Of a stretch of 41,312 nt of DNA, positions 2,875 to 40,074 are shown piece by piece. This DNA comes from Clostridia bacterium (GTDB lineage Bacteria > Bacillota > Clostridia > UMGS1840): positions 1 through 41,312 of the forward strand of contig JAFYVF010000035.1 in assembly GCA_017549265.1 (NCBI GenBank). The letters run 5' to 3'. The notes under the pieces were generated by a model. It worked only from the letters and a program-made list of their open reading frames with translations, was not told the origin of the DNA and did no database searches. Both the position numbers and the translations under genes were made by a program. The number at the start of each line of letters is the position of its first letter. Positions within the stretch are counted from its first letter, which is position 1.

Positions 2875-3753
2875 ATGAACACGGTAACGTTTCCAAATCT
2901 TGGATTATCATTTCAGGTGAATAAAATTGCATTTAGCATCGGAGCCATTCAAGTGCATTGGTATGCACTGATTATCTTAACCGGCGTGATTTTAGGGTTT
3001 TTATATGCGTCCATTTTTGCCAAACGGGAAAAATTAGATGTTGACTGTTTGTATGATGTGTTGCTTTGGGGACTTCCCACTGCATTGATTTTTGCAAGAT
3101 TATATTACGTGATTTTTAATTTTTCTGTTTTTCAGAACAATCTTGGATCTGTTTTTCACATCTGGGAGGGCGGTCTTGCCATTTACGGTGGAATCATCGG
3201 AGCGGCAATCTCCACCTACATATATGCCAGAGTGAAAAAAATCCCTGTTTTGCAGTTGTTTGATATGGGTGCCTTTGGCTTAATCGTAGGGCAGTCAGTG
3301 GGCAGATGGGGTAACTTTGTGAATGAGGAAGCCTACGGTTCGGTAACCAATTCTCTGTTTGCCATGACCAGTGACCAAATCCAAAGAGAAATGTCGTTAT
3401 TCGGTGCGAATGTGGCTGTGCACCCCACCTTCCTGTATGAATCGGTTTGGAACCTTGTGGGAGCAGTTCTTTTAGGATTGTTCCATAAACACAAAAAACA
3501 TCATGGACAGGTATTCTTCTTGTATCTTACCTGGTATGGTATCGGCAGATTCTTCATTGAAGGTCTTCGTATGGACAGTTTATACTGGGGGACTCTCCGC
3601 ATTTCTCAGGTAGTAGGACTGGTCACTGCGGTAATTGGTGTTGCAATGCTTGTGTATTTCTTCCGAAAACCCGCAACCTTTTCTTTGCAGACAGTTTGCA
3701 AGGACGCTGAAAAATTAACTGAAGAAACCAATCACAACGAATCTAATCAGTAA
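2875..3753 (+). CDS. lgt: Prolipoprotein diacylglyceryl transferase
   Basis: Polytopic 292-aa ORF with the Lgt signatures GGLAIYGGIIG and GRWGNFVNEEAYG. RBS AAGGAG lies upstream. Confidence 0.9.
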   Translation: MNTVTFPNLGLSFQVNKIAFSIGAIQVHWYALIILTGVILGFLYASIFAKREKLDVDCLYDVLLWGLPTALIFARLYYVIFNFSVFQNNLGSVFHIWEGGLAIYGGIIGAAISTYIYARVKKIPVLQLFDMGAFGLIVGQSVGRWGNFVNEEAYGSVTNSLFAMTSDQIQREMSLFGANVAVHPTFLYESVWNLVGAVLLGLFHKHKKHHGQVFFLYLTWYGIGRFFIEGLRMDSLYWGTLRISQVVGLVTAVIGVAMLVYFFRKPATFSLQTVCKDAEKLTEETNHNESNQ

Positions 3754-3772
3754 AAAGGAGATATCTTTCGAA

Positions 3773-4903
3773 ATGAAAATATCAGATAATGCACCATACG
3801 CTATCTGGATGAATCAAATGCTGGGATACGGAAATCAGTGCACGAAACAGTTGGTAATGCAATTTGGTTCTCCCAGAGCGGTGTTTGATTTAACTTCGGA
3901 TGAAATTGAGCATATTCAGTTTTTAAATAAAAAGCAAAAATCTATGCTTTACAATAAAAATTTGGAGTATGCATATTCCGTGATTGAAACCTGCAAGGAG
4001 AAACGGATTTCTGTGTACTGCTTTGGCGATGAAGATTATCCTGATTGTTTGTCGGTGATTTATGCACCGCCCATGGTTCTTTATGAAAAAGGGAAGCACT
4101 TTGATTATGATAAAATTCCTGCCTTTGCGGTAGTTGGTACCCGTTATTTAACCGAATACGGAAGACGCACTGCCTTTGATTTTGCAAAAGATCTGGCAAA
4201 AAGCGGACTTCTGGTAGTGAGCGGTATGGCAGACGGGTGCGATGCTCAGGCGCATTTGGGTGCTTTAAAAGCAGGAAAACCCACCGTGGCGGTATTGGGC
4301 ACAGGGGTGGATGTGATTTATCCGAAAGTGAATCGTGAGTTGTATGAATATATTGTGGATTATGGTGCAGTGTTAAGTGAGTATCCGCCCGGAACAAAGG
4401 CTACTCACTATGCATTCCCGCAAAGAAACCGTATCATCAGTGCTCTCACAATGGGCACACTGGTGGTAGAAGGGGATTTAGACAGCGGTTCTTTGTATAC
4501 GGCAGACCATGCCAACAACCAGGGAAAAGACGTGTTCGCCATTCCCAACAACATCTATGCGGAAAACAGTCGTGGAACCAATCAGTTGTTAAAAGAATTT
4601 GCATTGATGGCAATTTGCCCCTCCGATATTGTGGAGCGTTATGTGGATCGTTTCCCTGAGTATTTGTATCAGGAAGCGAAGAAACACACCGTTCCTCACG
4701 AAAAGTACTTAGAATTTCTTAAAAATCTTACCGATGACCAAAAGCTGGTTGTTGCAGAACTTTCCCACAAACCGAAATATATTGATGAAATTGTCAGAAA
4801 AACCGGTATGCCTGCAGGCAAAGTGAACGGTATTTTGACCATCTTAATGCTGAACGATATTGTCTATATGGTACCGGGCAATTCCTATGCATTGAAGCTT
4901 TAG
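3773..4903 (+). CDS. dprA: DNA-processing protein DprA (Smf)
   Basis: Rossmann-like core motifs SGMADGCDAQAH, VLGTGVDVIYP and FPQRNRIISAL. It keeps the conserved dprA-topA-trmFO order seen in Bacillus. Confidence 0.9.
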   Translation: MKISDNAPYAIWMNQMLGYGNQCTKQLVMQFGSPRAVFDLTSDEIEHIQFLNKKQKSMLYNKNLEYAYSVIETCKEKRISVYCFGDEDYPDCLSVIYAPPMVLYEKGKHFDYDKIPAFAVVGTRYLTEYGRRTAFDFAKDLAKSGLLVVSGMADGCDAQAHLGALKAGKPTVAVLGTGVDVIYPKVNRELYEYIVDYGAVLSEYPPGTKATHYAFPQRNRIISALTMGTLVVEGDLDSGSLYTADHANNQGKDVFAIPNNIYAENSRGTNQLLKEFALMAICPSDIVERYVDRFPEYLYQEAKKHTVPHEKYLEFLKNLTDDQKLVVAELSHKPKYIDEIVRKTGMPAGKVNGILTILMLNDIVYMVPGNSYALKL

Positions 4904-14930: not shown

Positions 14931-14969
14931 AAAAAAGGAACTGCTCCCAAGGGAGACAGTTCCTTTTTT
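14931..14969. terminator. Bidirectional rho-independent terminator between convergent units
   Basis: A6 run, a GC-rich stem GGAACTGCTCC/GGAG(A)CAGTTCC, then a T6 run. It lies between the mgtC-family stop (14919) and the stop of the minus-strand YaaL-like ORF (15022). Confidence 0.75.
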
Positions 14970-15021: not shown

Positions 15022-15252
15022 TTAAGAATGCACTGCCACTGCCTCTTTGGATTCCTTAATGGCAACATCCAGTCGTTTCTTTGCTAAGTTTAAATTCATA
15101 ATGGCAATGTCGATATATTCGTCTCGGGTTGCCTCGTTGAATTTGTTCCAGGCAACGGCAACTTCCTGCCTTGCTTCCATCACCGCATCCAAGGAAGGGT
15201 TTTCTTCCGGCTTTTGGAACAGGGCTGCAATTTTTTTTAAGAGCTTTTCCAC
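15022..15252 (-). CDS. YaaL/DUF2508-like small protein
   Basis: 76-aa ORF with a GTG start preceded by AAAGGCGGA. The pattern EARQEVAVAWNKFNEATRDEYIDIAIMNLNLAKKRLDVAIKESKE matches my recollection of the DUF2508 profile (..eW...F......IDyaIy.l.Aae.ry..Llkeak). Confidence 0.55.
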   Translation of the reverse strand: MEKLLKKIAALFQKPEENPSLDAVMEARQEVAVAWNKFNEATRDEYIDIAIMNLNLAKKRLDVAIKESKEAVAVHS

Positions 15253-15319
15253 AACAGATCCGCCTTTCTGATATTTTTTCTATCTAAAGTATATTCCTGA
15301 TTGCTAAAAAATATACCTT

Positions 15320-17188
15320 TTAGAAAGTAGTTTCTTTTTCTTTTGTCAGGTAATTTTCGTGAGCTTGTAAATGTTCTTCCCAAAGGTTAGCAATTTGGGG
15401 ATCTTTTTCCTCCAATTCTTCAAATTCCTGCGTCATCAGGTATTTGGTGTGTTCTTCAATATGAATTTCGTGATGGTCACGTGCTTTCACGGGACATAAA
15501 ATTTTTTCGCGCATTTTCAGGTTTTCACGGGATGCTTTTGTTGCGTGAAGGGTTTCTGTTTCCATTTTGTTTTCCCAGTCACCCATTTTCAGCATAGAAA
15601 GAATTTTGGATTTTGCGCAGGGGGTGATTTTGCCTGTTTTTGGGTCGGTAAAAAGTCCCATAGAATACAGTTCACGAATCAGTTCTCGTTTTACTGTCAG
15701 TGAATTTTCAATTTCATTCTGGGTGGTGAGTTCCAACTGTTCGGGAAGCAAATTGGCTTTGCTCCAACGAATGAGGGCGTTATCCGTATCATCACCGCCT
15801 AAATGAAGCATTCTTTCAAACAGTGCAAACTGACGGTATAACCGTAACCAGTGTTTGCCAACCTCCAACACTGCATTCCGAATATTTTCCGCACTGACCG
15901 CCAGACGGTTGTCATCCTGCTGAGACAAAATGCTTAACGCTGTTCCTGAAATAACGTTGGTTGGAGTGGAAGAATAACGGGACAGTTCCGAAATACCTGA
16001 AATAGAAACAAACGCTTCTTCCAGACGATCCTGTTTGGATAAGAAACTGTAGGGCAGGGCAGGAGTGTCCATAAATCGAGGCGGCTCGCTTCCTCTTAAG
16101 TACACAATGGGCATTCCGGGCGGCATACCGTAGTATTCTAAGCTATCCACATCCACACTGCCGTCTTCTATCACGGGAATGCCCAAAGCGGCACGATTCA
16201 AATATTCATTGATTCGATTTTGAATTGCGTTGTAATCTCGTTGAATGGGAATTAAGCGTTCAATGATACTGGTTCCGAAAAAACAGCCGGGACGGGCTAC
16301 GGATACCTGTTTTACAAAAGGATAGCCCCTGGTGTGATATTTCGCATTCAGATAGGGGAGCGGTCCTTCGTACAAAAGAATTTGATTATAATATGCCACA
16401 ATCAGAAGGCGTCCGTCCGGATGTTTTTTTGTGGGCTTTTCGTAGTATTCCAACACAATGTCGTATCCGTCTTTTACCTCCTGACCAACACTTTCCAGAC
16501 TACCGGTCCAACCAAGACCACCCGTTACGTTGGTCACGTTTGTCATAGAAAACAAATTGACGGGATGCCCTTTTAATTCCTGTCCCCACTTTTCTTTGAT
16601 TTCGTCCACATGATAAGGATGCGCGTGGATGATGCTTCTTTGTTCGACAATCTGTTCCGTGTAAAGGCTTTCAGGGTAAATTTCATACGGGCTTAACACA
16701 ACGGTATCCACTTCACCTGCCTTTATCGGCTCTTTTTCATCCAGATACAGAAAATCTCCCTGGTCTTTTTGCCAGACAGTTTTGTAAAATGCAGTGCCGA
16801 GCATTTCTGAAATAGCAACAGCATTTGCAATTTTTTCAGAGAAGTTTAACTGTTTGGAAACGGTGTTTAAAACAGCTGTGGAAATTTTTGCATTGGCAAT
16901 ATCGTTTAAATCGGAGCTGTCTGTAAAAGCGCCAATCTGGGGAACCACTCCCGACAGTTTTGCAATTCTGGTTTCCATAATGGGCGCAATATTGTTATAA
17001 ACTGCTCGTTCCTGGTAATCGTAGAGTTTTTCCACCGAATAGATTTTTCTGCCGTTATAATCCACGTCACAATATTGGTTTCCGTTTAAAAAGTTAATGT
17101 TTAAGTTCCATTTTAATTCTAAAGAACTTCGTTTTTCTTTTCTGTCGTGAAACTCATTACACACAAAAATTGGCAGTGTATCAGGCAT
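15320..17188 (-). CDS. Phage portal-like protein (orphan; no other virion genes in the window)
   Basis: 622-aa soluble ORF. The N-terminal WNLNINFLNGNQY, the following NNIAPIMETRIAKL...VPQ region, a central DYNAIQNRINEYLNRAA...PPGMPIVY...P..MD segment and an acidic helical C-terminus resemble tailed-phage portal proteins. This is by-eye recognition only. Confidence 0.5.
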   Translation of the reverse strand: MPDTLPIFVCNEFHDRKEKRSSLELKWNLNINFLNGNQYCDVDYNGRKIYSVEKLYDYQERAVYNNIAPIMETRIAKLSGVVPQIGAFTDSSDLNDIANAKISTAVLNTVSKQLNFSEKIANAVAISEMLGTAFYKTVWQKDQGDFLYLDEKEPIKAGEVDTVVLSPYEIYPESLYTEQIVEQRSIIHAHPYHVDEIKEKWGQELKGHPVNLFSMTNVTNVTGGLGWTGSLESVGQEVKDGYDIVLEYYEKPTKKHPDGRLLIVAYYNQILLYEGPLPYLNAKYHTRGYPFVKQVSVARPGCFFGTSIIERLIPIQRDYNAIQNRINEYLNRAALGIPVIEDGSVDVDSLEYYGMPPGMPIVYLRGSEPPRFMDTPALPYSFLSKQDRLEEAFVSISGISELSRYSSTPTNVISGTALSILSQQDDNRLAVSAENIRNAVLEVGKHWLRLYRQFALFERMLHLGGDDTDNALIRWSKANLLPEQLELTTQNEIENSLTVKRELIRELYSMGLFTDPKTGKITPCAKSKILSMLKMGDWENKMETETLHATKASRENLKMREKILCPVKARDHHEIHIEEHTKYLMTQEFEELEEKDPQIANLWEEHLQAHENYLTKEKETTF

Positions 17189-17432
17189 TTTTAGATTCCT
17201 CAGCCACTTGTGCTTTATAGGGATTCTGATGATACATTCCGCGTTTTACAGCAGATTTTTTTAAATCTTTTAAACGGGTTAAAAGTTTTTGCGCACGCTT
17301 TTTCTTTTCTTCTTCCTCTTTTTTTCGTTGCTGTGCAGCTGCTTTATCGTACTGATTATGATTGGGGCTGTACAGATTATAGGCACGATTGTAGGATTTG
17401 AATTTTTCGTTTTCTTCTTTGGTAAAGTTCAT
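17181..17432 (-). CDS. Hypothetical Lys/Glu-rich small protein
   Basis: 83-aa ORF with RBS GAGGTGA upstream. Its stop overlaps the portal-like start by 8 nt. A charged coiled-coil-like core (QQRKKEEEEKKKRAQKLL) is present. No family recognised. Confidence 0.45.
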   Translation of the reverse strand: MNFTKEENEKFKSYNRAYNLYSPNHNQYDKAAAQQRKKEEEEKKKRAQKLLTRLKDLKKSAVKRGMYHQNPYKAQVAEESKNA

Positions 17433-17478: not shown

Positions 17479-17508
17479 AGCATACCAAAGAAAGAATCCA
17501 TTTGGCAA
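17479..17508 (-). promoter_or_regulatory. Candidate sigma-A-type promoter upstream of the 83-aa/portal-like/YaaL-like genes
   Basis: Read on the minus strand: TTGCCA, an 18-nt spacer, then TATGCT with an extended -10 TG (TGgTATGCT). This lies about 45 nt upstream of the ATG at 17432. I found no convincing terminator between spoIIIAH and this site. Confidence 0.3.
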
Positions 17509-17533
17509 GGTCAGATTTTTCTCTTTGTTTTGG

Positions 17534-18040
17534 TTAATTTGTTTCAATAATTTTTAAGTTTTTCGGGTCGATGCCGGCTTCACTTTTCATGGTATCTCGA
17601 ATTTTGGCAAGTTCCTGGGGTGTTAAGCCATCTGATTTAACACTAACTGTGGCATCCGGTGAACTTAAAAATACGTTTACATTGGTAAAGCCTTTTTCGG
17701 TGAGAATTTGTTCTGCAATGGTTTCCTTTTCCATATCTTGGGCAATTCGGATAATTTCGCCTTGGGCTTCTGCTTTTTTCTCCGGGTCTGCATTTTCATC
17801 TTCAGATACAATTTGCAAAAGTGATACCGCTTCGCTGCGTTCTTTTTCCAATGTAACATCTGAAGACACATATTTAGCTTCTCCGTATGTGGTTCCTTCG
17901 TCATAGCTTTCATTGGCAGGTGGCAGGGTTAAGGACACGGTCTGTACTTCTGAGTGATTGATGTAGTTGACTACCCCTGCGGTTGCCAAAAGAGCGGTGC
18001 ACACCACTGCCGCAATTTTTCGTTTGTGCAATAAAATCAT
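17534..18040 (-). CDS. spoIIIAH: Stage III sporulation protein AH
   Basis: Last gene of the spoIIIA operon. N-terminal TM anchor plus a YscJ/FliF-like C-terminal domain (FTNVNVFLSSPDATVSVKSDGLTPQELAKIRD). Confidence 0.8.
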   Translation of the reverse strand: MILLHKRKIAAVVCTALLATAGVVNYINHSEVQTVSLTLPPANESYDEGTTYGEAKYVSSDVTLEKERSEAVSLLQIVSEDENADPEKKAEAQGEIIRIAQDMEKETIAEQILTEKGFTNVNVFLSSPDATVSVKSDGLTPQELAKIRDTMKSEAGIDPKNLKIIETN

Positions 18041-18067
18041 AGTTACTTTTCCTTTCTGATTGTCTTT

Positions 18068-18598
18068 TTAATGGGCTGGATAAGAATCGAAAATCACCTC
18101 CACAGTGTGTAAATCTGCTCCGAGAGAGCCTCTTGCTGCCCGATATAACAGTTCCTCGGTTTCTCTGCTGTAAGGAGCAAAGCAAAAGACACAAACGCCC
18201 TTAATGCGTGGCTGATGCTTGTTTTTTATCTGAATATTTTTATTGGCATCCAAAACGGGCTTTTGATCTTTTTTCTGTTGTAATGCTCCCGTGGCACTTT
18301 TGGTTTCTGCAGTTACGGTTTCCTCACTTACAACTTCCACTTCGCCCGTGTCGGCATATGCAATCAGCACACGAACTTCATGACCTGTTATTTTGCTTAG
18401 AAGTTCTTCAAATTCTCGGGTTGGCAAGTTCTGTTGGTTTATCATATTCGTTGGGGGAGAATTTGATGCTTTTTTGGAGGGGGAAGATGGAAATAAAAGC
18501 AGAATTGTGCCTATGAGTAACAGCATCACAATCAGTTTGATTCGTTTGCCTTTAGGACATTTCGTCCAGAAATTCTTCAGTGGGGTAAACCACTTCAT
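18068..18598 (-). CDS. spoIIIAG: Stage III sporulation protein AG
   Basis: Single N-terminal TM helix followed by a ring-building-motif-like domain (VRVLIAYADTGEVEVV..., IKGVCVFC). Operon position between AF and AH. Confidence 0.8.
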   Translation of the reverse strand: MKWFTPLKNFWTKCPKGKRIKLIVMLLLIGTILLLFPSSPSKKASNSPPTNMINQQNLPTREFEELLSKITGHEVRVLIAYADTGEVEVVSEETVTAETKSATGALQQKKDQKPVLDANKNIQIKNKHQPRIKGVCVFCFAPYSRETEELLYRAARGSLGADLHTVEVIFDSYPAH

Positions 18599-19004
18599 AA
18601 GGAAAGTCTCCTTTCAGTACTGCTTGAATTTTTGCAGATTCTTCTTTGGTGAACACGGTGACACAGAGGATTTCATATTGGTCGTTTAATTGAACCGTAA
18701 CCTGCGAAACAGATAGATTATTTCGGGAAAGTTCCTCTGTAATCTGAGTGGCAATTTGGGTTTCGTATTCTTGGAGTAACAAATTTTCTTCCTCGGTTTC
18801 ATATTCGGTAAAGGTGAATTCGGGGAGTGCAAACTTTATGCCAAACAGTGAGGATAACAGGAATAAAAATAAGAATAAACGAATGGAAAATTGTACATAT
18901 TTCCGAAAGGAATCGGTGGATAACAGTTCTTTTAAAAATTCACACACCAAAACAATCAGCACAACCTGTTTTAAATTGGAAATCCATTCAGACACTGATA
19001 TCAC
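18552..19004 (-). CDS. spoIIIAF: Stage III sporulation protein AF
   Basis: Two N-terminal TM helices (MISVSEWISNLKQVVLIVLVCEFLKELL resembles the Bacillus SpoIIIAF N-terminus). Operon position. Its end overlaps the spoIIIAG start. Confidence 0.7.
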   Translation of the reverse strand: MISVSEWISNLKQVVLIVLVCEFLKELLSTDSFRKYVQFSIRLFLFLFLLSSLFGIKFALPEFTFTEYETEEENLLLQEYETQIATQITEELSRNNLSVSQVTVQLNDQYEILCVTVFTKEESAKIQAVLKGDFPYEVVYPTEEFLDEMS

Positions 19005-19010
19005 TTCCTT

Positions 19011-20027
19011 CTATATTCCCATCACAATCATAATTCCAAGCACAGCAATTACGGAAACTGTCCCGACAACACCTGCCAGCATCCCCAGGGCGGTAGCCGT
19101 TTCCTGAAAAAAATGCTCTGTGCTTTCGTCCGACAGGAATCCTGCGCACACCGACAATCCCTGAAAGGTTAAAAATCCGGCAATCAGTTTTATTAGCGGA
19201 GATAAAAAAGCATAGGAAACGGTAATGACACCTGCCAGCCCCGCTTTGGATTTGATATGACTGATGGTTTGAATCAGGTATTCTCCTGAATTGGTGAGGC
19301 TTCCACCCAAAAAGGGAATGCAGTTGCCGAGAGCCAATTTGGCAGATTGAAGTGCAAACGAATCCGAAGCCTTGGTAACCGTGGTAAGTAGTGTGAAAAT
19401 GGTCATAAAAATTCCGATGATAATGGGAAGTACTGTTTTTACACTCCATAAAATTACTTTTTTCAAAGCACCAAAATAATCCTTTTCCAACAACGGTGAC
19501 AGGGCGGCGCACATAAAATAAATGAGAATTCCGGGTAGAAAAATATGTTTGATGAGAAATACCAGAATGCTCATAAAACCTAACAGGAAATAGGAGGATT
19601 TCGCAGCAGATAAAACTCTGCCACTGTTGGCGATGAACCCTGTTAATACCGGAACGGTCAAAATCATCAATTCCGAAAGATGGGTGATGCAGGCTTCCGC
19701 CACTGTCGACAGCTCCCGAAACAGTTCTCCTGAACCCAGTGCCAATGCACAAAAAATACCCAGATGAACCGTTCGATTGAGACTAATTGGAAATTCCATA
19801 CAGTTTTTGATACCAATGAGCAATATGAGAAGTATCATAGACGGAATTTTAGAGCGAAGCAGAATCAATTCTCCAAACAGTAAATCACTGATTGTTTCCC
19901 ATACTTGCTGAAAAGAAAAATCAAAGGTTTCTATGGTGCTTGCATCTGTGGCATACACTTTTTGGGAACAGATGAATAATATCATCAGAAGAAAGCAGGA
20001 AAGGCGTTTTATCCGAATACAGACCAT
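19011..20027 (-). CDS. spoIIIAE: Stage III sporulation protein AE
   Basis: Signal-peptide-like N-terminus (MVCIRIKRLSCFLLMILFICSQKVYA) followed by a polytopic permease-like body. The ATG at 20027 is preceded by GGTGG. The longer ORF to 20144 overlaps spoIIIAD and is Arg/Cys-rich junk. Confidence 0.85.
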   Translation of the reverse strand: MVCIRIKRLSCFLLMILFICSQKVYATDASTIETFDFSFQQVWETISDLLFGELILLRSKIPSMILLILLIGIKNCMEFPISLNRTVHLGIFCALALGSGELFRELSTVAEACITHLSELMILTVPVLTGFIANSGRVLSAAKSSYFLLGFMSILVFLIKHIFLPGILIYFMCAALSPLLEKDYFGALKKVILWSVKTVLPIIIGIFMTIFTLLTTVTKASDSFALQSAKLALGNCIPFLGGSLTNSGEYLIQTISHIKSKAGLAGVITVSYAFLSPLIKLIAGFLTFQGLSVCAGFLSDESTEHFFQETATALGMLAGVVGTVSVIAVLGIMIVMGI

Positions 20028-20398
20028 ACGGTATCCACCACCTTTCCGATCAGAGGTAACAGAAGCATCAAAATGACCACTTTTGCGGCAAATTCCGCTT
20101 TTTTTGCAATAGCGGTTTCTCCTGCGTCGGCAATCACGTTGCAAAAATATTCTGCTCCGATTCCAATTCCTAAAATCCGAAGTACCGTGGAAAAAGTTTC
20201 AGGGTCTAACCCCGAGACGTTCATAAAGTCAGACAGCATTCCGATAATGCCGGAGAGTTCTCTTGCAATCAAGGAAAATATCACAATTCCCGTTGCAAGG
20301 GCAATCATCATTGAAAAATGGGGAGCCTTTTCCCGCAAAAATACTGCCGATATGGCCCCTGCAAAGGCAATTCCCATGAGCTTGGCAACCGTATCCAT
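20009..20398 (-). CDS. spoIIIAD: Stage III sporulation protein AD
   Basis: 129-aa four-TM protein. ILGIGIGAEYFCNVIADAGETAIAKKAEFAAKVVIL aligns with Bacillus SpoIIIAD (IIGIAYIAEFGAQLTKDAGQGAIASKIELAGKILIL). Confidence 0.85.
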   Translation of the reverse strand: MDTVAKLMGIAFAGAISAVFLREKAPHFSMMIALATGIVIFSLIARELSGIIGMLSDFMNVSGLDPETFSTVLRILGIGIGAEYFCNVIADAGETAIAKKAEFAAKVVILMLLLPLIGKVVDTVWSVFG

Positions 20399-20410
20399 AA
20401 AGGTACCTCT

Positions 20411-20605
20411 CTAAAAGTGAAATAAGCTTTTAATGGTTTCAAATAAATAGGCAATTTCCTGCACAATCACAATCAGCACCACCACAAGACCGGCAAGCGT
20501 AACCATGGTGGCTTGTTCGTCTCGTCCTGATTTGGCAAGCAATTGATTTAGGATGGCAACAATAATGCCGATTGCAGCAATTTTAAAGATTAATTCAACG
20601 TTCAT
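20411..20605 (-). CDS. spoIIIAC: Stage III sporulation protein AC
   Basis: 64-aa two-TM protein (MNVELIFKIAAIGIIVAILNQLLAKSGRDEQA...) with RBS GAGAGGT. The tracked ORF's 60-codon N-terminal extension overlaps spoIIIAB. Confidence 0.85.
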   Translation of the reverse strand: MNVELIFKIAAIGIIVAILNQLLAKSGRDEQATMVTLAGLVVVLIVIVQEIAYLFETIKSLFHF

Positions 20606-20616
20606 AATAAAACCTC

Positions 20617-21111
20617 TCAAAATAACAAAATTGCCACCATCGCACTGATGGAGTATACCCCTGAAGTAATCAGTTTTTTGGCTTTCGGAAGTTCTTTTTG
20701 CATTGATTTTAAGAGTTCTTCCAATCGTAGCCGGGTGAATCGGAACTGTTCTTCTGTGTCTTTGTTGGTGGTTTTTCCCATGCAATCAAAATAATGGGAG
20801 ATGACTTCCATTGCTTCTGGTGGAAGCGGAAGGGATTCCAATGATTTGTTCAAAGCATCACGCAGGGGAAGTTCTTTTTGGTATTTTACAAAATTTCTCT
20901 GAAATAGCTTGGGGAATACTCCCGGTTGATTTTCCTCCAAAACAGCTTTTTTCAGCGTCCGTTTCCATTCGGTAACGCCACAGGTAACACTTCTTAAAAA
21001 TCTCATCATCTCCCATAGGCATTGTACCGGTTTTTGTTTGCGGTCTGTGAAATAACCAACCAGTAGCATATCTCCTGCGATAATGCATGCCAGTCCCCAC
21101 AGTTTCACCAT
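20617..21111 (-). CDS. spoIIIAB: Stage III sporulation protein AB
   Basis: The N-terminus MVKLWGLACIIAGDMLLVGYF parallels Bacillus MLKLLGAVFIVVATTWTGF, and there is a C-terminal TM helix. The ATG at 21111 is preceded by AAGGTG. An alternative GTG at 21120 overlaps the spoIIIAA stop. Confidence 0.8.
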   Translation of the reverse strand: MVKLWGLACIIAGDMLLVGYFTDRKQKPVQCLWEMMRFLRSVTCGVTEWKRTLKKAVLEENQPGVFPKLFQRNFVKYQKELPLRDALNKSLESLPLPPEAMEVISHYFDCMGKTTNKDTEEQFRFTRLRLEELLKSMQKELPKAKKLITSGVYSISAMVAILLF

Positions 21112-21116
21112 ATTTT

Positions 21117-21992
21117 TCACACCTTCACAATGGTTTGAATACGGTCTTGGGAACTGTTTTTAGAAAGATAAACTTCATAAGAAAACACTTGTTCGGCGGT
21201 TAGCCTGCCAATGTTTTTTCTGAAATTTCCTTCGCAGTCCCCGTGGATGGTTGCCACAACAGATACACCGGCATGATACGCATAAAGCAGGCTTTTCTCA
21301 TCTTCCTCAGTTCCGATTTCATCCACGGCGATTACGTTAGGAGATAGACTTCTGATCGCCATAGAAATTCCGTCTGATTTTTGATATCCGTTTAACACAT
21401 CACACCGAAATCCCAAGTTGTTTTGCATTTCTCCCTGATAGGAAGCAGCAAGCTCACCTCGTTCATCCACTACCGAGATACGTATCCCGGGGCTTTTTTC
21501 CGATAATTGACGGATAAAATCCCGAAGCAGTGTGGTTTTTCCGTGCCCGGGAGGAGAAATTATGAGAATTCCCGGGAGAGGGGTGATGTGACCCACCGCT
21601 TGAAATAAGCGGTCTGCAGAGCCTGTTACTTCGCGTGCAATTCGTAGGTTGACAGAGGAGATATCCTTAAGGTAAGTCAAGCGGTTATCTTCATACACTG
21701 CGGTGCCTGCAAGACCTACCCGATGTCCTCCTTGGATGGTGATATAGCCTGTTTTTATGGATTCAAAAAAAGAGGACAGAGAACCTTCTGTCAGGCGGTC
21801 TATCAGATGTTCCAATTCTTTGGATTGGTACCGATAAGGGGTGATCAATTCCCGACCGTTTTCTATAAAAATTACCGGAAGATTTTTGCGAAAGCGGATT
21901 TCTTCTGTCTGTGGCGTCAGATATTCGCTCAGACATGCAGGGAGCAAGTGTAAGATTTCTTGTTGTTTGGGAAAAAATTCGGATTGTATCAT
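21117..21992 (-). CDS. spoIIIAA: Stage III sporulation protein AA (secretion-type ATPase)
   Basis: Walker A ISPPGHGKTTLLRD, Walker B VIAVDEIG, and length/order typical of SpoIIIAA as the first gene of the operon. Confidence 0.9.
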   Translation of the reverse strand: MIQSEFFPKQQEILHLLPACLSEYLTPQTEEIRFRKNLPVIFIENGRELITPYRYQSKELEHLIDRLTEGSLSSFFESIKTGYITIQGGHRVGLAGTAVYEDNRLTYLKDISSVNLRIAREVTGSADRLFQAVGHITPLPGILIISPPGHGKTTLLRDFIRQLSEKSPGIRISVVDERGELAASYQGEMQNNLGFRCDVLNGYQKSDGISMAIRSLSPNVIAVDEIGTEEDEKSLLYAYHAGVSVVATIHGDCEGNFRKNIGRLTAEQVFSYEVYLSKNSSQDRIQTIVKV

Positions 21993-35768: not shown

Positions 35769-36326
35769 ATGAAAACATCTTATCAAATGACAATTGCAGG
35801 TTGCATGAGAGATTTAATTCTTTGTCCCATCGGAGACAACTTATATATTGGTGCCTTTATTATGTTTGGTGATGTGGAATTAACCGAGAATTGCGCCCGA
35901 GAACTTTTAAAAAAGGCTCCCGAACATGATGTTTTAGTCACTGCAGAAGCCAAGGGAATTCCGTTAATTTGTGAAATGGCACGTCAGGAAGGTGTCAATC
36001 ATTATGTGGTTGCCAGAAAAGGTCCCAAACTATATATGAAAAATCTTCTTACCACCGATGTGGATTCCATTACCACTGCAAAAACTCAGACCCTATGTAT
36101 CGGAGAGAGAGAAACCGAAATGCTTCGTGGAAAACGGGTGCTGATTGTGGACGATGTAATCAGTACGGGAGAATCCCTTCGTGCTTTGGAAAAACTTGTC
36201 ACCTTAGCAGGAGGTAATATTGTGGGAAGAATGGCAGTCTTGGCAGAGGGGGACGCTATTGGCAATCCGGATTATATTTACTTAGAACCGCTCCCACTTT
36301 TTGACGGGGAAGGTAATCCTATTTAA
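35769..36326 (+). CDS. Phosphoribosyltransferase family protein (purine/adenine PRT-like)
   Basis: PRPP-binding motif VLIVDDVISTGES. The ATG at 35769 lies 9 nt after AAAGGAG. Confidence 0.75.
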   Translation: MKTSYQMTIAGCMRDLILCPIGDNLYIGAFIMFGDVELTENCARELLKKAPEHDVLVTAEAKGIPLICEMARQEGVNHYVVARKGPKLYMKNLLTTDVDSITTAKTQTLCIGERETEMLRGKRVLIVDDVISTGESLRALEKLVTLAGGNIVGRMAVLAEGDAIGNPDYIYLEPLPLFDGEGNPI

Positions 36327-36482
36327 AATAAAAAACGAAAAGAAAAACTGTTGTCAAATGGTATAGAAGTGTAGCTACAAATAATTGATGTAGTCAATGT
36401 ATAGGATACAAAATAAATTTGCATTTCGGAATCGAGTTTCCGGTACCATCCAATAAAGGGATTTGTGTATTAGGAGGAAAAA

Positions 36483-37166
36483 ATGATTAGAGTAGGGACA
36501 GTTTATCAAAAAGAAATCATGGATATGACCATACCCAATGTGACATGTCCATGCTGTAACTCGGTGTTTACTGCAAATTTAAGCAGAAGTGTGCAAACAG
36601 CAACGATATTATTTATTCCATGTATGAAAAAGTCATTGCTGTACTATAGTGTATGTCCGAATTGCGGTATGAAATATATTCTGAATAAAACAGATTATGC
36701 ACAAATACTGCAATCTTCTTTAGCTTCATGCAGTAATGAATGGAATAAAATATGTAGTGGAAGCTTTGAAAAGCAAATAAAAAAAATAAATAATCGTGTG
36801 ATACGGTCCCCTAAAAGTGCTTTGTTGGCATCTGTTTTATCGTTAATCTTCGGCTTATTAGGACTCCAGAATTTGTATATGGGACACAAAAAAAGATTTT
36901 TAATGAACATCTTGTTTTTTATACTATCCATAGTTATGTTTGCATTAGCTTTAGTTTTAAATCTATTAGTTTTGTGTGTTCCTTGCGCATTACTTTTAGC
37001 TACCAATGTATATTGGGGTATTATAGATTTAGTCCGTATTTTATCAGGTCATGCGAAAGATTTAAAAGGTGCATATTTGCTTACTGACTCACAGTATAAA
37101 AAAAGATGGATAGCATATACTGAGTTGCGCGACAAGATAAATGAGTATAGCACTGTGCAATATTAA
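36483..37166 (+). CDS. Zinc-ribbon plus TM2-domain membrane protein
   Basis: Strong RBS AGGAGG. The N-terminus has CPCC...CPNC (a Cys4 ribbon). The C-terminal half has TM2-like features (LLGLQNLYMGHKKRF ... WGIIDLVRILSG). The region is visibly more AT-rich than its flanks. Confidence 0.6.
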   Translation: MIRVGTVYQKEIMDMTIPNVTCPCCNSVFTANLSRSVQTATILFIPCMKKSLLYYSVCPNCGMKYILNKTDYAQILQSSLASCSNEWNKICSGSFEKQIKKINNRVIRSPKSALLASVLSLIFGLLGLQNLYMGHKKRFLMNILFFILSIVMFALALVLNLLVLCVPCALLLATNVYWGIIDLVRILSGHAKDLKGAYLLTDSQYKKRWIAYTELRDKINEYSTVQY

Positions 37167-37393
37167 AATTTCTTCCAATTTTTAATATTAAAAAGATAAC
37201 CCATATTTTGTAGACAGGATGAAAGGATTTTCAGAACATGTTCTTTCTTGAATGACAAATAAGGAACGAATAGAAGGAAATGTGTTAAAAGTCAATGATT
37301 TAAGGCATAGTGTTTGCTACTGCAACAAGCATTAAAAAATATATTATGGTCCTAACATTTAGGATTATCCTGCAATTTTATAAAAATTATTGC

Positions 37394-37427
37394 AAAAGGC
37401 TGAACGATTGATTTTGTTCAGCCTTTT
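37394..37427. terminator. Bidirectional rho-independent terminator
   Basis: Perfect 12-bp stem AAAAGGCTGAAC/GTTCAGCCTTTT with a 10-nt loop. The A/T runs are part of the arms. It lies downstream of the minus-strand yqzL and, at 230 nt distance, of the plus-strand TM2 gene. Confidence 0.65.
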
Positions 37428-37471
37428 AATATTGTGCTCCGTTAGAGCAAATGAAAAAAGCAACAGTTTTT

Positions 37472-37627
37472 TTATGTTTTAGGTTCTTTGTTCTGCTCAG
37501 ATTCTTCCTCTTTTAACAGAAGATAGGCATCAATTCTGCCGGTTTCTAAAAATAAATTCCAGAAAAAATTTTCGTTGTTTTCAATCGCTTGGATACTTCT
37601 GTTTCGTTCCCCTTTTTTAGAAAGCAT
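37472..37627 (-). CDS. yqzL: YqzL-family small protein
   Basis: Not in the ORF track because it is 51 aa. My own translation is MLSKKGERNRSIQAIENNENFFWNLFLETGRIDAYLLLKEEESEQNKEPKT. The F.W..F..TG.IDAYLL.KE core matches my recollection of B. subtilis YqzL. RBS AAAGGAGA. Confidence 0.7.
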   Translation of the reverse strand: MLSKKGERNRSIQAIENNENFFWNLFLETGRIDAYLLLKEEESEQNKEPKT

Positions 37628-37737
37628 ATCTTCCGTCTCCTTTTGTGATTTTGTTAATAATATTCTTTCCGTATGACCATCTTTTTATAACAAAACGAAC
37701 GATTTGGCATATCTTGTAAATGAAAGGGGGCGACACT

Positions 37738-37797
37738 ATGAAAGGCGATACCTCATTGTTATTCTTTATTTTAGTTTTTTTATTATTGTTCTATTAA
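37738..37797 (+). CDS. Candidate 19-aa hydrophobic micro-ORF
   Basis: GGGGG lies 7 nt upstream of the ATG. Translation is MKGDTSLLFFILVFLLLFY, a single hydrophobic stretch. The only support is the RBS and its position at the head of the small-ORF cluster. Confidence 0.2.
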   Translation: MKGDTSLLFFILVFLLLFY

Positions 37798-37901
37798 AAA
37801 CATATTGAGAAAGAGCGCGGCATATACTGTAGCAAGACACGTAATGAAGAAAAAATCAGTTTATGCCGCCCTCTTTGTTCATAAAAAAGGAGGGAACCCG
37901 A

Positions 37902-38141
37902 GTGGCGGGATGGGAAGAACTTTTTCGTGGAATGGATCAGACAAAAGTAAAATCGGCAATGGAGAGAGCAAAGGCATTGTCGGAGAATCCAACGGTTCAG
38001 CAGGCTTTTGCCCGTATGGACCAGCAGGAGATTATTGGTGCAATCCGTTCCCTATCCAATCAGGATAAAAATCGGCTGTTAAAAATCTTATTTCAATCAA
38101 AAAATAAAGATTTTCTTCAGATGATTGAGCAGCTGAAATAA
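37902..38141 (+). CDS. Hypothetical small helical protein (79 aa)
   Basis: GTG start 6-7 nt after the strong SD AAGGAGGG. The composition is helical (MAGWEELFRGMDQTKVKSAMERAKALSENPTVQQAF...). The tracked ATG at 37863 lacks an RBS. No family recognised. Confidence 0.5.
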   Translation: MAGWEELFRGMDQTKVKSAMERAKALSENPTVQQAFARMDQQEIIGAIRSLSNQDKNRLLKILFQSKNKDFLQMIEQLK

Positions 38142-38164
38142 AAAAGGAGATGTAAAAAAAGGAT

Positions 38165-38539
38165 ATGGCAGAATTTGATAAAAATCTTGTGATGGGAATG
38201 CTGCAGAGTTTGTTAGGAGAAGGGGAGCAGAAGAATTTATCCGCTGAGAATTCGATTCCCGATTCTTCTCAGTCTTCTGCTTCTTCGGCACAGCCTGTTT
38301 CATTACCGGTGTCTCCATCCGAAAAAGATGTGGATGATTTGATGAATACGGCAGAAATCATGAGCCGTTTTACCGATATCATGGGGAGATTCCGTCAGGC
38401 AAATAATACGAAAGAAGCAGCGCTTCTTTCGGCACTCCGACCTTATCTTCGTGCCTCCCGTCAGCCAAAAGTGGATACGATGCTTCGGGCATTGCAGGCA
38501 TACCGTGTTTTTTCTGAAATGAAAAAAAGCAATTCATAA
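38165..38539 (+). CDS. Hypothetical protein (124 aa), Ser/Pro-rich linker plus conserved-looking basic C-terminal helices
   Basis: RBS AAAAGGAGA upstream. The C-terminal LLSALRPYLRASRQPKVDTMLRALQAY looks like a conserved module. No family assignment possible by eye. Confidence 0.5.
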   Translation: MAEFDKNLVMGMLQSLLGEGEQKNLSAENSIPDSSQSSASSAQPVSLPVSPSEKDVDDLMNTAEIMSRFTDIMGRFRQANNTKEAALLSALRPYLRASRQPKVDTMLRALQAYRVFSEMKKSNS

Positions 38540-38566
38540 AGATACATAGGGATAGGAGCGAAAAAG

Positions 38567-38872
38567 ATGTATCAATCGATTCCCAAACGGGTGTATACCA
38601 CCAAAGAAAGCGCCATGCCAAAGATGGCGGTTCCGCCTTCATTTTTTGCCGAAAAAAACGAATGTCATGCATCATCAGACATCTTACAAATGTGTCATAG
38701 CCAAGATATAACATCGAAACCAAATACGTCAAATATAGTAAAAAAATCATCAATACTAAAAAATATGGAAATGGACGATTTGCTTTTAATCGGTCTGTTG
38801 CTTCTTTTCATTTCGGAAGACTCAGACCAGCAACTTCTGACTGCGGTTATAGCATTTTTGTTGTTTTCATAA
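38567..38872 (+). CDS. Hypothetical protein (101 aa) with a C-terminal hydrophobic/acidic DDLLLIGLLLLF...SDQQLLTAVIAFLLF segment
   Basis: RBS GGGATAGGAG upstream. Same strand and tight spacing with the two preceding ORFs. Confidence 0.45.
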   Translation: MYQSIPKRVYTTKESAMPKMAVPPSFFAEKNECHASSDILQMCHSQDITSKPNTSNIVKKSSILKNMEMDDLLLIGLLLLFISEDSDQQLLTAVIAFLLFS

Positions 38873-38980
38873 GTTTTTTTCATAAGAAAGTATATTTTCA
38901 TTTGAAAAAGCCAATAGTAAAAGTGAAAAGAATGTTCTTTTCGAAAACGAAATTATCAAAAAACAAGGAGGCATTTTCTT

Positions 38981-39142
38981 ATGAATCAGGCAAATCATGC
39001 GATCAAATGCACCGTACAGCAGTGTAAACATCATTGCAATTCCGAAAACTACTGTTCTTTGGATTGCGTTACCATCGGTACTCACGAAATGAACCCTGCC
39101 ATGGACCAGTGTACTGACTGCAAATCTTTTGCAAAGAAATAA
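38981..39142 (+). CDS. DUF1540-domain small Cys-rich protein
   Basis: Not in the ORF track because it is 53 aa. My own translation is MNQANHAIKCTVQQCKHHCNSENYCSLDCVTIGTHEMNPAMDQCTDCKSFAKK. The pattern I.C.V..C...C.L..v.iG...T.C.SF is as recalled for DUF1540. RBS AAGGAGG. Confidence 0.7.
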   Translation: MNQANHAIKCTVQQCKHHCNSENYCSLDCVTIGTHEMNPAMDQCTDCKSFAKK

Positions 39143-39205
39143 GCTTTTTAGCGAACAAAAACACCATTCATACTTTTTTCATCCTTTTTTTACTACCACA
39201 TTTGG

Positions 39206-39247
39206 AAAAAGAACGGTTTTTTATAAAAAACTGTTCTTTTTTCTTTT
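39206..39247 (+). terminator. Rho-independent terminator after the DUF1540 gene
   Basis: A stem of about 17 bp, AAAAAGAACGGTTTTTT/AAAAAACTGTTCTTTTT (one G-U pair), with a short loop and a trailing T-run. Confidence 0.6.
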
Positions 39248-39327
39248 TGATGACATTATGAAATTTCCTCTATACAAATGCAAAAATGTATGGTATACTG
39301 AATGTACGAAAAAGGAGGATCAAAACT

Positions 39328-40074
39328 ATGAAACTCATTTCCTGGAACGTAAACGGACTTCGTGCGTGCCTAACCAAAGGTTTTTTAGATTTCTTTTCTT
39401 CGGAAAATGCAGATATTTTTTGTATTCAGGAAACCAAAATGCAGGAAGGACAAGCAGAACTTAGTTTAGAAGGATACCATCAGTATTGGCACAGTGCCGA
39501 AAAAAAAGGATATAGCGGAACGGCTGTGTTTACCAAAGAAAAACCCTTAAGTGTTGCCTATGGGATTGGAGATAAACACAACGATGAGGGTAGAGTAATT
39601 ACCTTGGAATTTGATGATTTTTACCTGGTGAATTGTTATACCCCAAATGCTCAGCAGGAATTAAAACGTTTGGACTATCGTATGGAATTTGAAGACGATT
39701 TTCGTGCATACTTAAATAGTTTACCAAAACCTGTTATCTTATGCGGGGACTTAAATGTTGCTCACCAGGAAATTGACTTAAAAAATCCCAAAACCAACCG
39801 TCAGAATGCAGGCTTTTCCGATGAAGAACGTGGCAAAATGACCGAGCTTTTGGCATCAGGTTTTTCGGATACTTTCCGTACCCTATATCCCGATACAACC
39901 GATGCATACACATGGTGGTCTTATCGGTTTTCGGCAAGAGCAAAAAATGTGGGATGGCGGATTGACTATTTTATTGTGTCATCCTCTGTGATGAACGAGG
40001 TTTCAGATAGCGTGATTTACCCGGATGTGTTTGGCAGTGACCATTGTCCGATCGGATTAACCATAAATTTGTGA
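39328..40074 (+). CDS. xth: Exodeoxyribonuclease III
   Basis: MKLISWNVNGLRA, FCIQETK, GDLNVAH and SDHCP are Xth/ExoA signatures. The ATG at 39328 follows AAGGAGGA. The tracked start at 39286 lies in the promoter region. Confidence 0.92.
   Translation: MKLISWNVNGLRACLTKGFLDFFSSENADIFCIQETKMQEGQAELSLEGYHQYWHSAEKKGYSGTAVFTKEKPLSVAYGIGDKHNDEGRVITLEFDDFYLVNCYTPNAQQELKRLDYRMEFEDDFRAYLNSLPKPVILCGDLNVAHQEIDLKNPKTNRQNAGFSDEERGKMTELLASGFSDTFRTLYPDTTDAYTWWSYRFSARAKNVGWRIDYFIVSSSVMNEVSDSVIYPDVFGSDHCPIGLTINL

Follow-up and report, generated by a model that had tools for sequence, protein, structure and literature searches.

The locus studied here raises the question of why a gene for a phage portal-like protein should stand directly behind the sporulation gene spoIIIAH, with no other virion gene beside it, and what such a protein might still do there. 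We analyzed a stretch of 41,312 nucleotides (nt) from a Clostridia bacterium (assembly GCA_017549265.1, contig JAFYVF010000035.1), hereafter the window, for which an original prediction, made from the sequence, had offered two answers: a portal domesticated for the SpoIIIA-SpoIIQ channel of the mother cell or, more mundanely, the last surviving gene of a decayed prophage. Our results point to a third, which we consider the probable one, namely, that the portal has become detached from, and still serves, a domesticated podovirus-like particle system resembling a gene transfer agent (GTA), with its genes split over at least two loci.

Identity of the portal protein

The 622-amino-acid (aa) protein, encoded at 15320-17188 on the minus strand, is a podovirus-type (P22/SU10-like) portal homologue, as judged by sequence family and predicted fold. 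It matched the Pfam families P22_portal (PF16510; E = 1.1e-12, 47.7 bits against a cut-off of 26.1) and SU10_portal (PF23899; E = 8e-8, 31.6 bits against a cut-off of 30), and the portal protein family PHROG_156 aligned with its residues 12-498 (3.2e-26). An AlphaFold2 model, based on an alignment of 70 homologues (predicted local distance difference test score, 77.4; predicted template modeling score, 0.71), retrieved 165 matches at E <= 0.001 from the PDB with Foldseek. The top 50 were all phage portals, mostly from short-tailed phages, with a best E value of 9e-15, a probability of 1.00, template modeling scores of 0.35-0.68, and 506-739 aligned columns; the portals matched include those of Pan3, SU10, Pa223, N4, GP4, P22, and T7. 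A phmmer search against PDB sequences gave no match and a search of NCBIfam gave no family, so that the portal identity rests on Pfam, PHROG, and the fold. The three portal-like segments to which the original prediction had drawn attention, WNLNINFLNGNQY, DYNAIQNRINEYL, and PPGMPIVY, are present and fall on columns that do not vary in the family alignment, and its expectation that profile and structure searches would recover a portal fold was borne out by each of the families named above and by the whole of the Foldseek top 50.

The relationship to known phage portals is nonetheless distant. Portals of the P22/SU10 type (e.g., PDB entries 7z44 of SU10, 9vyf of Pan3, and 9jga of P22) share the fold over nearly the full length, but their structural alignments with the 622-aa protein have only 10-15% identity, and the nearest phage portals in GenBank, from Microbacterium phage Shocker and Arthrobacter phage Jasmine, are 22-23% identical. 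Further, unlike the genes for P22/SU10-type portals, this gene lies outside any phage genome, and the usual position of a portal gene beside terminase and head genes was found neither in the window nor within 10 kb on either side in 11 related loci.

The gene unit behind spoIIIAH

As the original prediction had described it, the portal gene is one of three open reading frames (ORFs) that follow spoIIIAH on the same strand. The spoIIIAA-AH operon (17534-21992, minus strand) lies directly upstream; all eight of its genes are recognizable in the window and are annotated in an identical metagenomic contig (L179; comparison loci are numbered with the prefix L) and in syntenic loci, for which the Pfam labels comprise Spore_III_AA, AB, AC, AD, AE, AF, and AH. 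The window's spoIIIAH itself occupies 17534-18040 on the minus strand (Pfam SpoIIIAH, 4.5e-23). The first ORF behind it (17181-17432, minus strand) encodes a basic 83-aa protein with a net charge of +10 and a conserved C-terminal motif, KKSAIKRGMYNQKPY, and its stop codon overlaps the start of the portal ORF by 8 nt (17181-17188). Downstream of the portal gene is a 76-aa helical ORF (15022-15252, minus strand) that is weakly DUF2508/YaaL-like.

The transcription signals of this unit also agree with those first described. A terminator scan of the 101-nt gap between spoIIIAH and the 83-aa ORF found no terminator-like site, and the gap folds no better than its shuffles (z = +0.42). The first strong terminator on the minus strand after spoIIIAH is the bidirectional intrinsic hairpin at 14931-14969 (-28.7 kcal/mol, z = -6.0, followed by a U run; 0/200 shuffles fold equally well), which closes the portal unit and is convergent with mgtC. 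The weak sigma-A-like promoter candidate noted earlier in the gap (TTGCCA and TATGCT, 18 nt apart, with an upstream TG; 17508-17479) proved to be conserved in related genomes and forms part of a predicted promoter of the 83-aa/portal/76-aa unit at 17479-17513 on the minus strand, made up of TGACCTTG, the -35-like TTGCCA, the 18-nt spacer, and the TG-extended -10 hexamer TATGCT. Base composition, described earlier as like that of core-genome neighbors, is indeed so, at 42.1% GC for the portal gene and 41-42% for its flanks. Between the portal stop codon and the 76-aa ORF (15253-15319) there is, in addition, an AU-rich hairpin (-16.5 kcal/mol, z = -2.5) that has no U tract and hence is not a typical terminator; it may influence processing or translation.

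Conservation and selection in the spoIIIAH-linked clade

In the protein database, the window's portal belongs to a well-delimited group of 18 clusters at 66-91% identity, after which there is a gap down to 45% or less. The order spoIIIAA-AH, small ORF, portal, and ORF of about 76-81 aa was kept in every readable locus with a portal in that identity range (L007-L011, L013-L018, and L179-L181, among which are six GTDB species representatives), and none of these loci has a TerL (large terminase) or capsid gene within 10 kb of the portal. The carriers form a clade of animal-gut, spore-forming Clostridia. The proposal that related spore-formers with no phage genes nearby would have orthologues beside spoIIIAH thus holds for all of the clade loci, including the most divergent one (L011, at 66% portal identity), which has different downstream neighbors and still has spoIIIAH upstream. 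In a neighbor-joining tree, which carries no support values, this orphan clade is monophyletic and is sister to the portal of another locus, L012.

The portal gene is under strong purifying selection, at a level of constraint estimated from sequence comparisons to be that of housekeeping genes. A full-length, intact portal ORF is present in all 18 clusters and in all clade loci. Within the clade, portal identity (75-91%) equals or exceeds that of SpoIIIAH (73-88%), except in L018 (75% versus 77%), and the portal is better conserved than every other SpoIIIA protein (25-72%). The ratio of nonsynonymous to synonymous substitution rates (dN/dS), a check proposed with the original prediction, is 0.04-0.09 for the portal, similar to the values for TrmFO, a radical-SAM protein, and MgtC, with the ratios being approximate given that dS exceeds 1 in all pairs. 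With respect to the wider family described below, the clade portals retain 75 of the 81 columns (93%) that are conserved at 95% or more among their relatives; no segment or domain is deleted, and the channel and stem positions are still conserved. There are 48 clade-specific fixed substitutions, 14 of which cluster at residues 351-400, a region placed by the model between the long stem helices and probably corresponding to the clip, the part of a portal in contact with terminase and adaptor.

The two small ORFs are likewise constrained, and both are peculiar to the clade. The 83-aa ORF occurs in all clade loci with the same 8-nt overlap (dN/dS of 0.12-0.38, with dS saturated). It takes the place of a TerS-like (small terminase-like) ORF found beside related portals elsewhere, and we considered it as a homologue of that ORF, which is ruled out by the lack of detectable homology (hhalign probability of 0.4%). 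The 76-aa ORF is also present in all clade loci at 66-88% identity (41% in L011), with a dN/dS of 0.04-0.16 at saturated dS. The DUF2508 family (PF10704) is approached only by its L011 orthologue, at 18.3 bits against a cut-off of 22.5 (E = 0.0026), in an alignment spanning positions 20-68 of the 71-position model, and the window's own 76-aa protein has no match to it; it does match PHROG_27515, a family of unknown function (6.9e-4). As a fragment of a scaffold gene, the 76-aa ORF was rejected, since a tblastn comparison with the scaffold proteins p183 and p154 showed no similarity. In one metagenomic copy with an identical portal protein (L180:4683-4874), the portal and the 76-aa ORF are separated by 192 nt, in place of the 67 nt in the window, indicating a small insertion.

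These observations bear directly on the idea of an inert relic, according to which a prophage or cassette decayed here until only the portal gene was left, kept by chance. The absence of any other virion gene from the 41-kb window and from the 10 kb on either side in relatives is what such a relic would show. Set against this are ORFs that are intact in all loci and all 18 clusters, at 66-91% identity; the low dN/dS of the portal; and the retention of the family-conserved residues, of the promoter, and of a partner operon, described below. We therefore regard an inert relic as extremely unlikely, and the prophage-remnant alternative of the original prediction does not stand.

Cassette relatives in other Clostridia

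What a portal of this family usually serves is suggested by its more distant relatives. Relatives at about 40% identity are encoded by at least 577 species-level genomes, and we compared the neighborhoods in the best 80 species genomes, consisting of 6 with the spoIIIAH linkage and 74 outside the clade. All 74 nonclade loci contain the portal in a chromosomal cassette of about 9 kb (loci L001-L006 and L019-L092; e.g., L002:8289-17321), and 0/74 has a spoIIIA gene within 10 kb. The order of the cassette is TerL, a TerS-like ORF of about 60-110 aa, portal, p183 (scaffold), major head protein, p107/120 (adaptor), p176, p493, DUF7934 (with or without LysM), and BhlA holin, so that tail and lysin genes stand between the adaptor and the holin. 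Specifically, its TerL has both the ATPase and the nuclease domain, its small ORF resembles the C terminus of small terminases (phrog_309, 1.2e-6), its head protein is the major head protein phrog_14242 (1.6e-42), and gene-family matches identify a virion structural protein and the holin. In three annotated cassette loci, the flanks are core genes that differ by lineage (groEL, fusA, and cdaA), and there are no integrase or replication genes. The names of the metagenome-assembled genomes (MAGs; Christensenella, Christensenellaceae) suggest that the carriers are mostly Christensenellales-like Clostridia. The cassette is a candidate domesticated, GTA-like element, of which we found no description in the literature searched.

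The clade of the window shares with these cassettes a portal that is homologous over its full length, at 38-46% identity, and a set of genes, at a second locus, that are homologous to and syntenic with those downstream of the cassette portal. Unlike the cassettes, it has no TerL, TerS-like ORF, scaffold, major capsid protein (MCP), tail, or lysis gene beside the portal, and it has instead the two clade-specific small ORFs and the position behind spoIIIAH.

The cassettes themselves are variable at their TerL end. TerL is present in most of them, and in about 20 loci it is 3-8 kb away or beyond 10 kb, while the cassette otherwise looks complete. Eight loci (L046, L050, L057, L058, L060, L069, L071, and L074) have 3-8 kb inserted between TerL and the TerS-like ORF and portal, and about 13 cassettes (e.g., L034, L036-L038, L059, L067, L087, and L090) have no TerL within 10 kb upstream. 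With TerL displaced or distant in so many cassettes, their fragmentation is recurrent and is not confined to the clade of the window.

Two further observations concern the breadth of the family. Tandem pairs of MCP homologues are present in four loci (L091:6647-9100, L114:3693-6080, L116:4177-6500, and L119:6166-8500). Among IMG/VR sequences, eight loci (L099-L103, L105, L106, and L128) encode portals that are 38-44% identical to that of the window beside a divergent TerL, which is only 23-27% identical to the cassette TerL; the portal and MCP genes are farther apart there, and some of the contigs are 35-65 kb long. These loci may be free phage or prophage relatives of the family.

A capsid operon at a second locus

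The counterpart of the missing cassette genes came to light through the sister locus. On the L012 contig, the portal gene is accompanied by scaffold, MCP, adaptor, p175, p667, tail, amidase, and holin genes but not by an upstream TerL, and the L012 capsid protein, used as a query, retrieved a separate MCP group at 60-63% identity. One member of that group, P0128, comes from assembly GCA_045638525.1, where it is encoded on contig JAZUBQ010000023.1; the spoIIIAH-linked portal locus L007 belongs to this assembly as well, on contig JAZUBQ010000019.1. The second locus, which encodes P0128 and is found also in L093-L096 and L098, comprises genes for a scaffold-like p177, the MCP (213 bits to NF033394, capsid_maj_Podo), p129 (adaptor), p176, p597, and p61, between flanking core genes (serC/serA-like and leu genes). 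In order, these genes of the second locus correspond to those downstream of the L012 portal, from which it appears that an ancestral cassette was broken between the portal and the scaffold gene. Further, the portal and MCP identity matrices run in parallel, with a core group, one outlying lineage, L012, and then all others, which is what coinheritance predicts. The description of the portal as an orphan is therefore apt for the window and for the 10 kb on either side in relatives, and it fails at the level of the genome, where scaffold and capsid genes lie on another contig of the same assembly.

Some features of these loci are recorded here for their own sake. Two features precede the L012 cassette (L012:172-1627 and 3533-4039): an extracytoplasmic function sigma factor and a zf-HC2 anti-sigma factor form a pair about 2.4 kb upstream, and the 500-bp gap before the L012 portal holds two tiny ORFs, one of them Cys-rich and zinc-ribbon-like. 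The capsid operon has a conserved leader of about 130-150 nt (L093:9265-9414, L097:9282-9426, and L098:9263-9413) with a GGAAGCCGA...TCGGTTTTCC hairpin and, in L093 and L098, a terminator-like GCCGAC...GTCGGCTTTTTT just before the ribosome-binding site. This leader may act as an attenuator or be a regulatory RNA of another kind; Rfam returned nothing credible for it (E = 0.52).

A predicted promoter common to both loci

The two loci are connected by more than their ancestry. In the gap between spoIIIAH and the 83-aa ORF, all clade loci have TGAmCTTG overlapping a -35-like hexamer, an extended -10 (TTTGnTAnnnT) 17-18 nt later, and then a GAGTAGTGCGGAA-like sequence, and the position of this promoter is conserved in 9/9 clade portal loci. 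The capsid operon is preceded by the same elements at the same spacing (e.g., TGAACTTGTAAA-N-TTTGACATACT and then GGTGCGGAAGCC), and the start-region sequence is likewise the same at both loci. The promoter can be summarized as TGAACTTG-N20-TAnnnT followed by GTGCGGAA. When searched for as a composite pattern, the motif was found in 7/9 portal loci and 3/3 capsid loci (L093, L097, and L098), with two other matches in about 250 kb searched on both strands. As a general feature of the cassettes, the motif was rejected, its pattern being absent upstream of TerL in 49/51 of them, in which respect the clade differs from its relatives; the bare 7-mer GAACTTG is too common (0.24 per kb) to serve as a signal. 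The portal unit thus has a predicted promoter of its own and is presumably coregulated with the capsid operon. In addition, because there is no terminator after spoIIIAH, read-through of spoIIIA transcripts into the portal unit is likely, from the arrangement of the signals.

The reading we favor, that of a portal serving a split particle system, combines these elements as follows. The portal would form the dodecameric vertex at which the scaffold and capsid proteins assemble a small capsid, and DNA would be packaged through it if a terminase is encoded elsewhere in the genome. The common promoter would coregulate the two loci, the position behind spoIIIAH would have arisen by a rearrangement in the ancestor of the clade, and mother-cell transcripts of spoIIIA would probably run on into the portal unit in the absence of an intervening terminator. 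In keeping with a GTA-like element, structural genes appear to be fixed without integrase, replication, or lysogeny modules, both in the clade, where each locus is flanked by core genes (spoIIIA and mgtC for one, serC/serA-like and leu genes for the other), and in the three annotated cassettes. They are also conserved across the host clade under purifying selection, as seen from the at least 577 species-level genomes, the syntenic clade loci, and the portal dN/dS of 0.04-0.09.

Several points weigh against this reading. The linkage of the portal to the second locus within one genome comes from a single MAG, in which a binning error is possible, although the promoter that the two loci share and the parallel between the identity matrices speak against such an error; a further MCP (P0131) is in a third assembly, and two others (P0132 and P0003) have different accession prefixes and were taken to be from different MAGs. 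No lysis genes are recognizable in the second locus, and no TerL lies within 10 kb on either side of the portal locus or of the second locus in the clade. The TerL of L023, the nearest TerL-bearing lineage, gave 4809 matches when used as a query, and none of the 120 listed is tied to clade genomes, which is not evidence of absence. The saturation of dS (>1) makes the dN/dS values approximate, and the conserved, terminator-free adjacency to spoIIIAH would, in this reading, be a historical accident with possible read-through.

The same observations on the terminase could be taken to mean that the particle is a DNA-free shell or resembles a bacteriocin, the terminase having been lost in L012 and the orphan lineage. 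No TerL is encoded upstream of the L012 portal or near either of the orphan-clade loci, the TerS-like ORF has been replaced by an unrelated small ORF, and 14 of the 48 clade-specific substitutions fall in the region that the model suggests to be the clip. However, the approximately 20 otherwise complete cassettes in which TerL is 3-8 kb off or more than 10 kb away make its absence nearby weak evidence, and the channel and stem positions of the portal remain conserved. We consider a DNA-free particle to be rather unlikely.

Relation to sporulation

The position of the portal unit invites explanations that involve sporulation itself. First, a portal ring could have been recruited as a part or partner of the SpoIIIA-SpoIIQ channel, no longer serving a capsid, which is the possibility that the original prediction put foremost. 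In its favor, the unit is co-oriented with spoIIIA with no terminator after spoIIIAH, the linkage is conserved, purifying selection on the portal is equal to or above that on most SpoIIIA proteins, and two clade-specific small ORFs stand in place of the cassette neighbors. However, the linkage to spoIIIA is restricted to one clade, comprising 6 of the 80 best species loci plus metagenomic loci, with the other 74 in phage-type cassettes, and the unit has a conserved promoter in the gap, with activity predicted from its sequence, that is common to the unlinked capsid operon. The same lineage also still has its capsid, scaffold, and tail genes, in conserved form, and the portal has kept 93% of the family-conserved positions without the loss of a domain. 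Further, the portal has no signal peptide-like or transmembrane segment, with a maximal 19-residue Kyte-Doolittle hydropathy of 0.97, versus 2.02 for SpoIIIAH and 2.43 for SpoIIIAG, and no membrane segment was found in the small ORFs (maxima of -0.60 for the 83-aa and 0.77 for the 76-aa protein). In the literature searched, no paper connects portals to spoIIIA or draws a link between GTAs and sporulation in the mother cell. Hence, of the original proposal, the part that concerns a domesticated portal homologue stands, given the purifying selection, the host-like composition, and the lack of adjacent phage genes, while a role in the channel is very unlikely in view of the unit's own promoter, the one-clade linkage, and the lack of a membrane segment.

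Second, particle production could be coupled to sporulation, with sigma-E-dependent read-through from spoIIIA supplying or boosting the portal, the initiator of assembly, so that particles would be produced in a mother cell that is going to lyse in any case. This possibility, which we regard as unlikely, is consistent with spoIIIAH being followed in no locus by a terminator or stable structure before the portal unit begins, with a promoter that abuts the spoIIIAH stop codon in L007, L008, L011, and L018, and with an adjacency that persists in L011 despite the changed downstream neighbors. It would also fit with the second locus, in which the lysin and holin genes, the last genes of the cassette in other lineages, are not recognizable. 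Against it are the unit's own sigma-A-like promoter, which is shared with the second locus and appears unlike the sigma-E or sigma-K consensus; the location of the second locus, which is not beside sporulation genes; the finding that 0/74 cassette loci are near spoIIIA; and the synteny of the whole region in the clade, as a result of which the adjacency may be neutral. A more specific form, in which the split is regulatory and the portal behind spoIIIAH ties DNA-carrying, GTA-like particles to the sigma-E program of the mother cell, seems to us improbable. If true, particles would be assembled in and released by the lysing mother cell, the lysis genes of the cassette would be dispensable, and the system would be a sporulation-coupled GTA. 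The terminator-less junction behind spoIIIAH makes any such link between particles and sporulation testable.

Comparison with known gene transfer agents

The closest parallel to the split particle system that we favor is the FpGTA of Faecalibacterium prausnitzii. RcGTA, of Rhodobacter capsulatus, keeps its portal in the main head-tail cluster, unlike the detached portal described here. It too consists of domesticated phage particle genes under host control at several loci (PMC12946183), but its lineage is unrelated, being siphovirus-like and from Alphaproteobacteria, as opposed to podovirus-like and from Clostridia. FpGTA, by comparison, forms podovirus-like capsids of 40 nm that contain 8.4-8.9 kb of DNA, and its genes lie in two operons that are 125 kb apart (PMC12946183, Nat Commun 2026). 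As in the present system, phage-derived structural genes are fixed in the chromosome of a gut Firmicute without replication or integration genes. Like the cassettes, FpGTA is about 10 kb in size, with head genes of the podovirus type and a TerS-like protein that lacks a DNA-binding domain, and like the clade of the window, it has two unlinked operons. The two differ in that the FpGTA MCP is annotated as belonging to the N4-gp56 family, versus NF033394 (capsid_maj_Podo) here, and they are thus not homologous at the capsid level; the cassettes, with their order of TerL, small ORF, and portal, do not belong to the FpGTA family. The division of genes also differs. FpGTA operon I holds the portal with TerL and MCP, and operon II holds the tail and lysis genes, whereas here it is the portal itself that stands apart from the scaffold and MCP.

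GTA-like packaging has been reported for Christensenellaceae MAGs in human fecal virus-like particles, with the genes unnamed (PMC12946183). The cassette family, with its at least 577 species-level genomes and a capsid family unlike that of FpGTA, offers a testable candidate for these packaging genes. The parting of the portal from the capsid genes in the clade of the window, with both under strong constraint and with a promoter in common, points clearly to domestication under host control and away from the decay of a prophage. More generally, virion genes that appear to be orphans in core-genome neighborhoods can be parts of dispersed systems.

The remainder of the window

The earlier statement that the window holds no other virion gene was upheld, since tblastn searches with four sets of cassette proteins matched the portal alone, in the window as in the clade loci, and the other ORFs of the window belong to housekeeping families in Pfam. 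No tRNA genes were found in the window. Its AT-rich stretch (36300-39500, 33-36% GC) gave no phage signal; two of its ORFs (38165-38539 and 39129-39464) have no Pfam match, and the stretch also encodes, at 36483-37166, a TM2/zinc-ribbon-like membrane protein.

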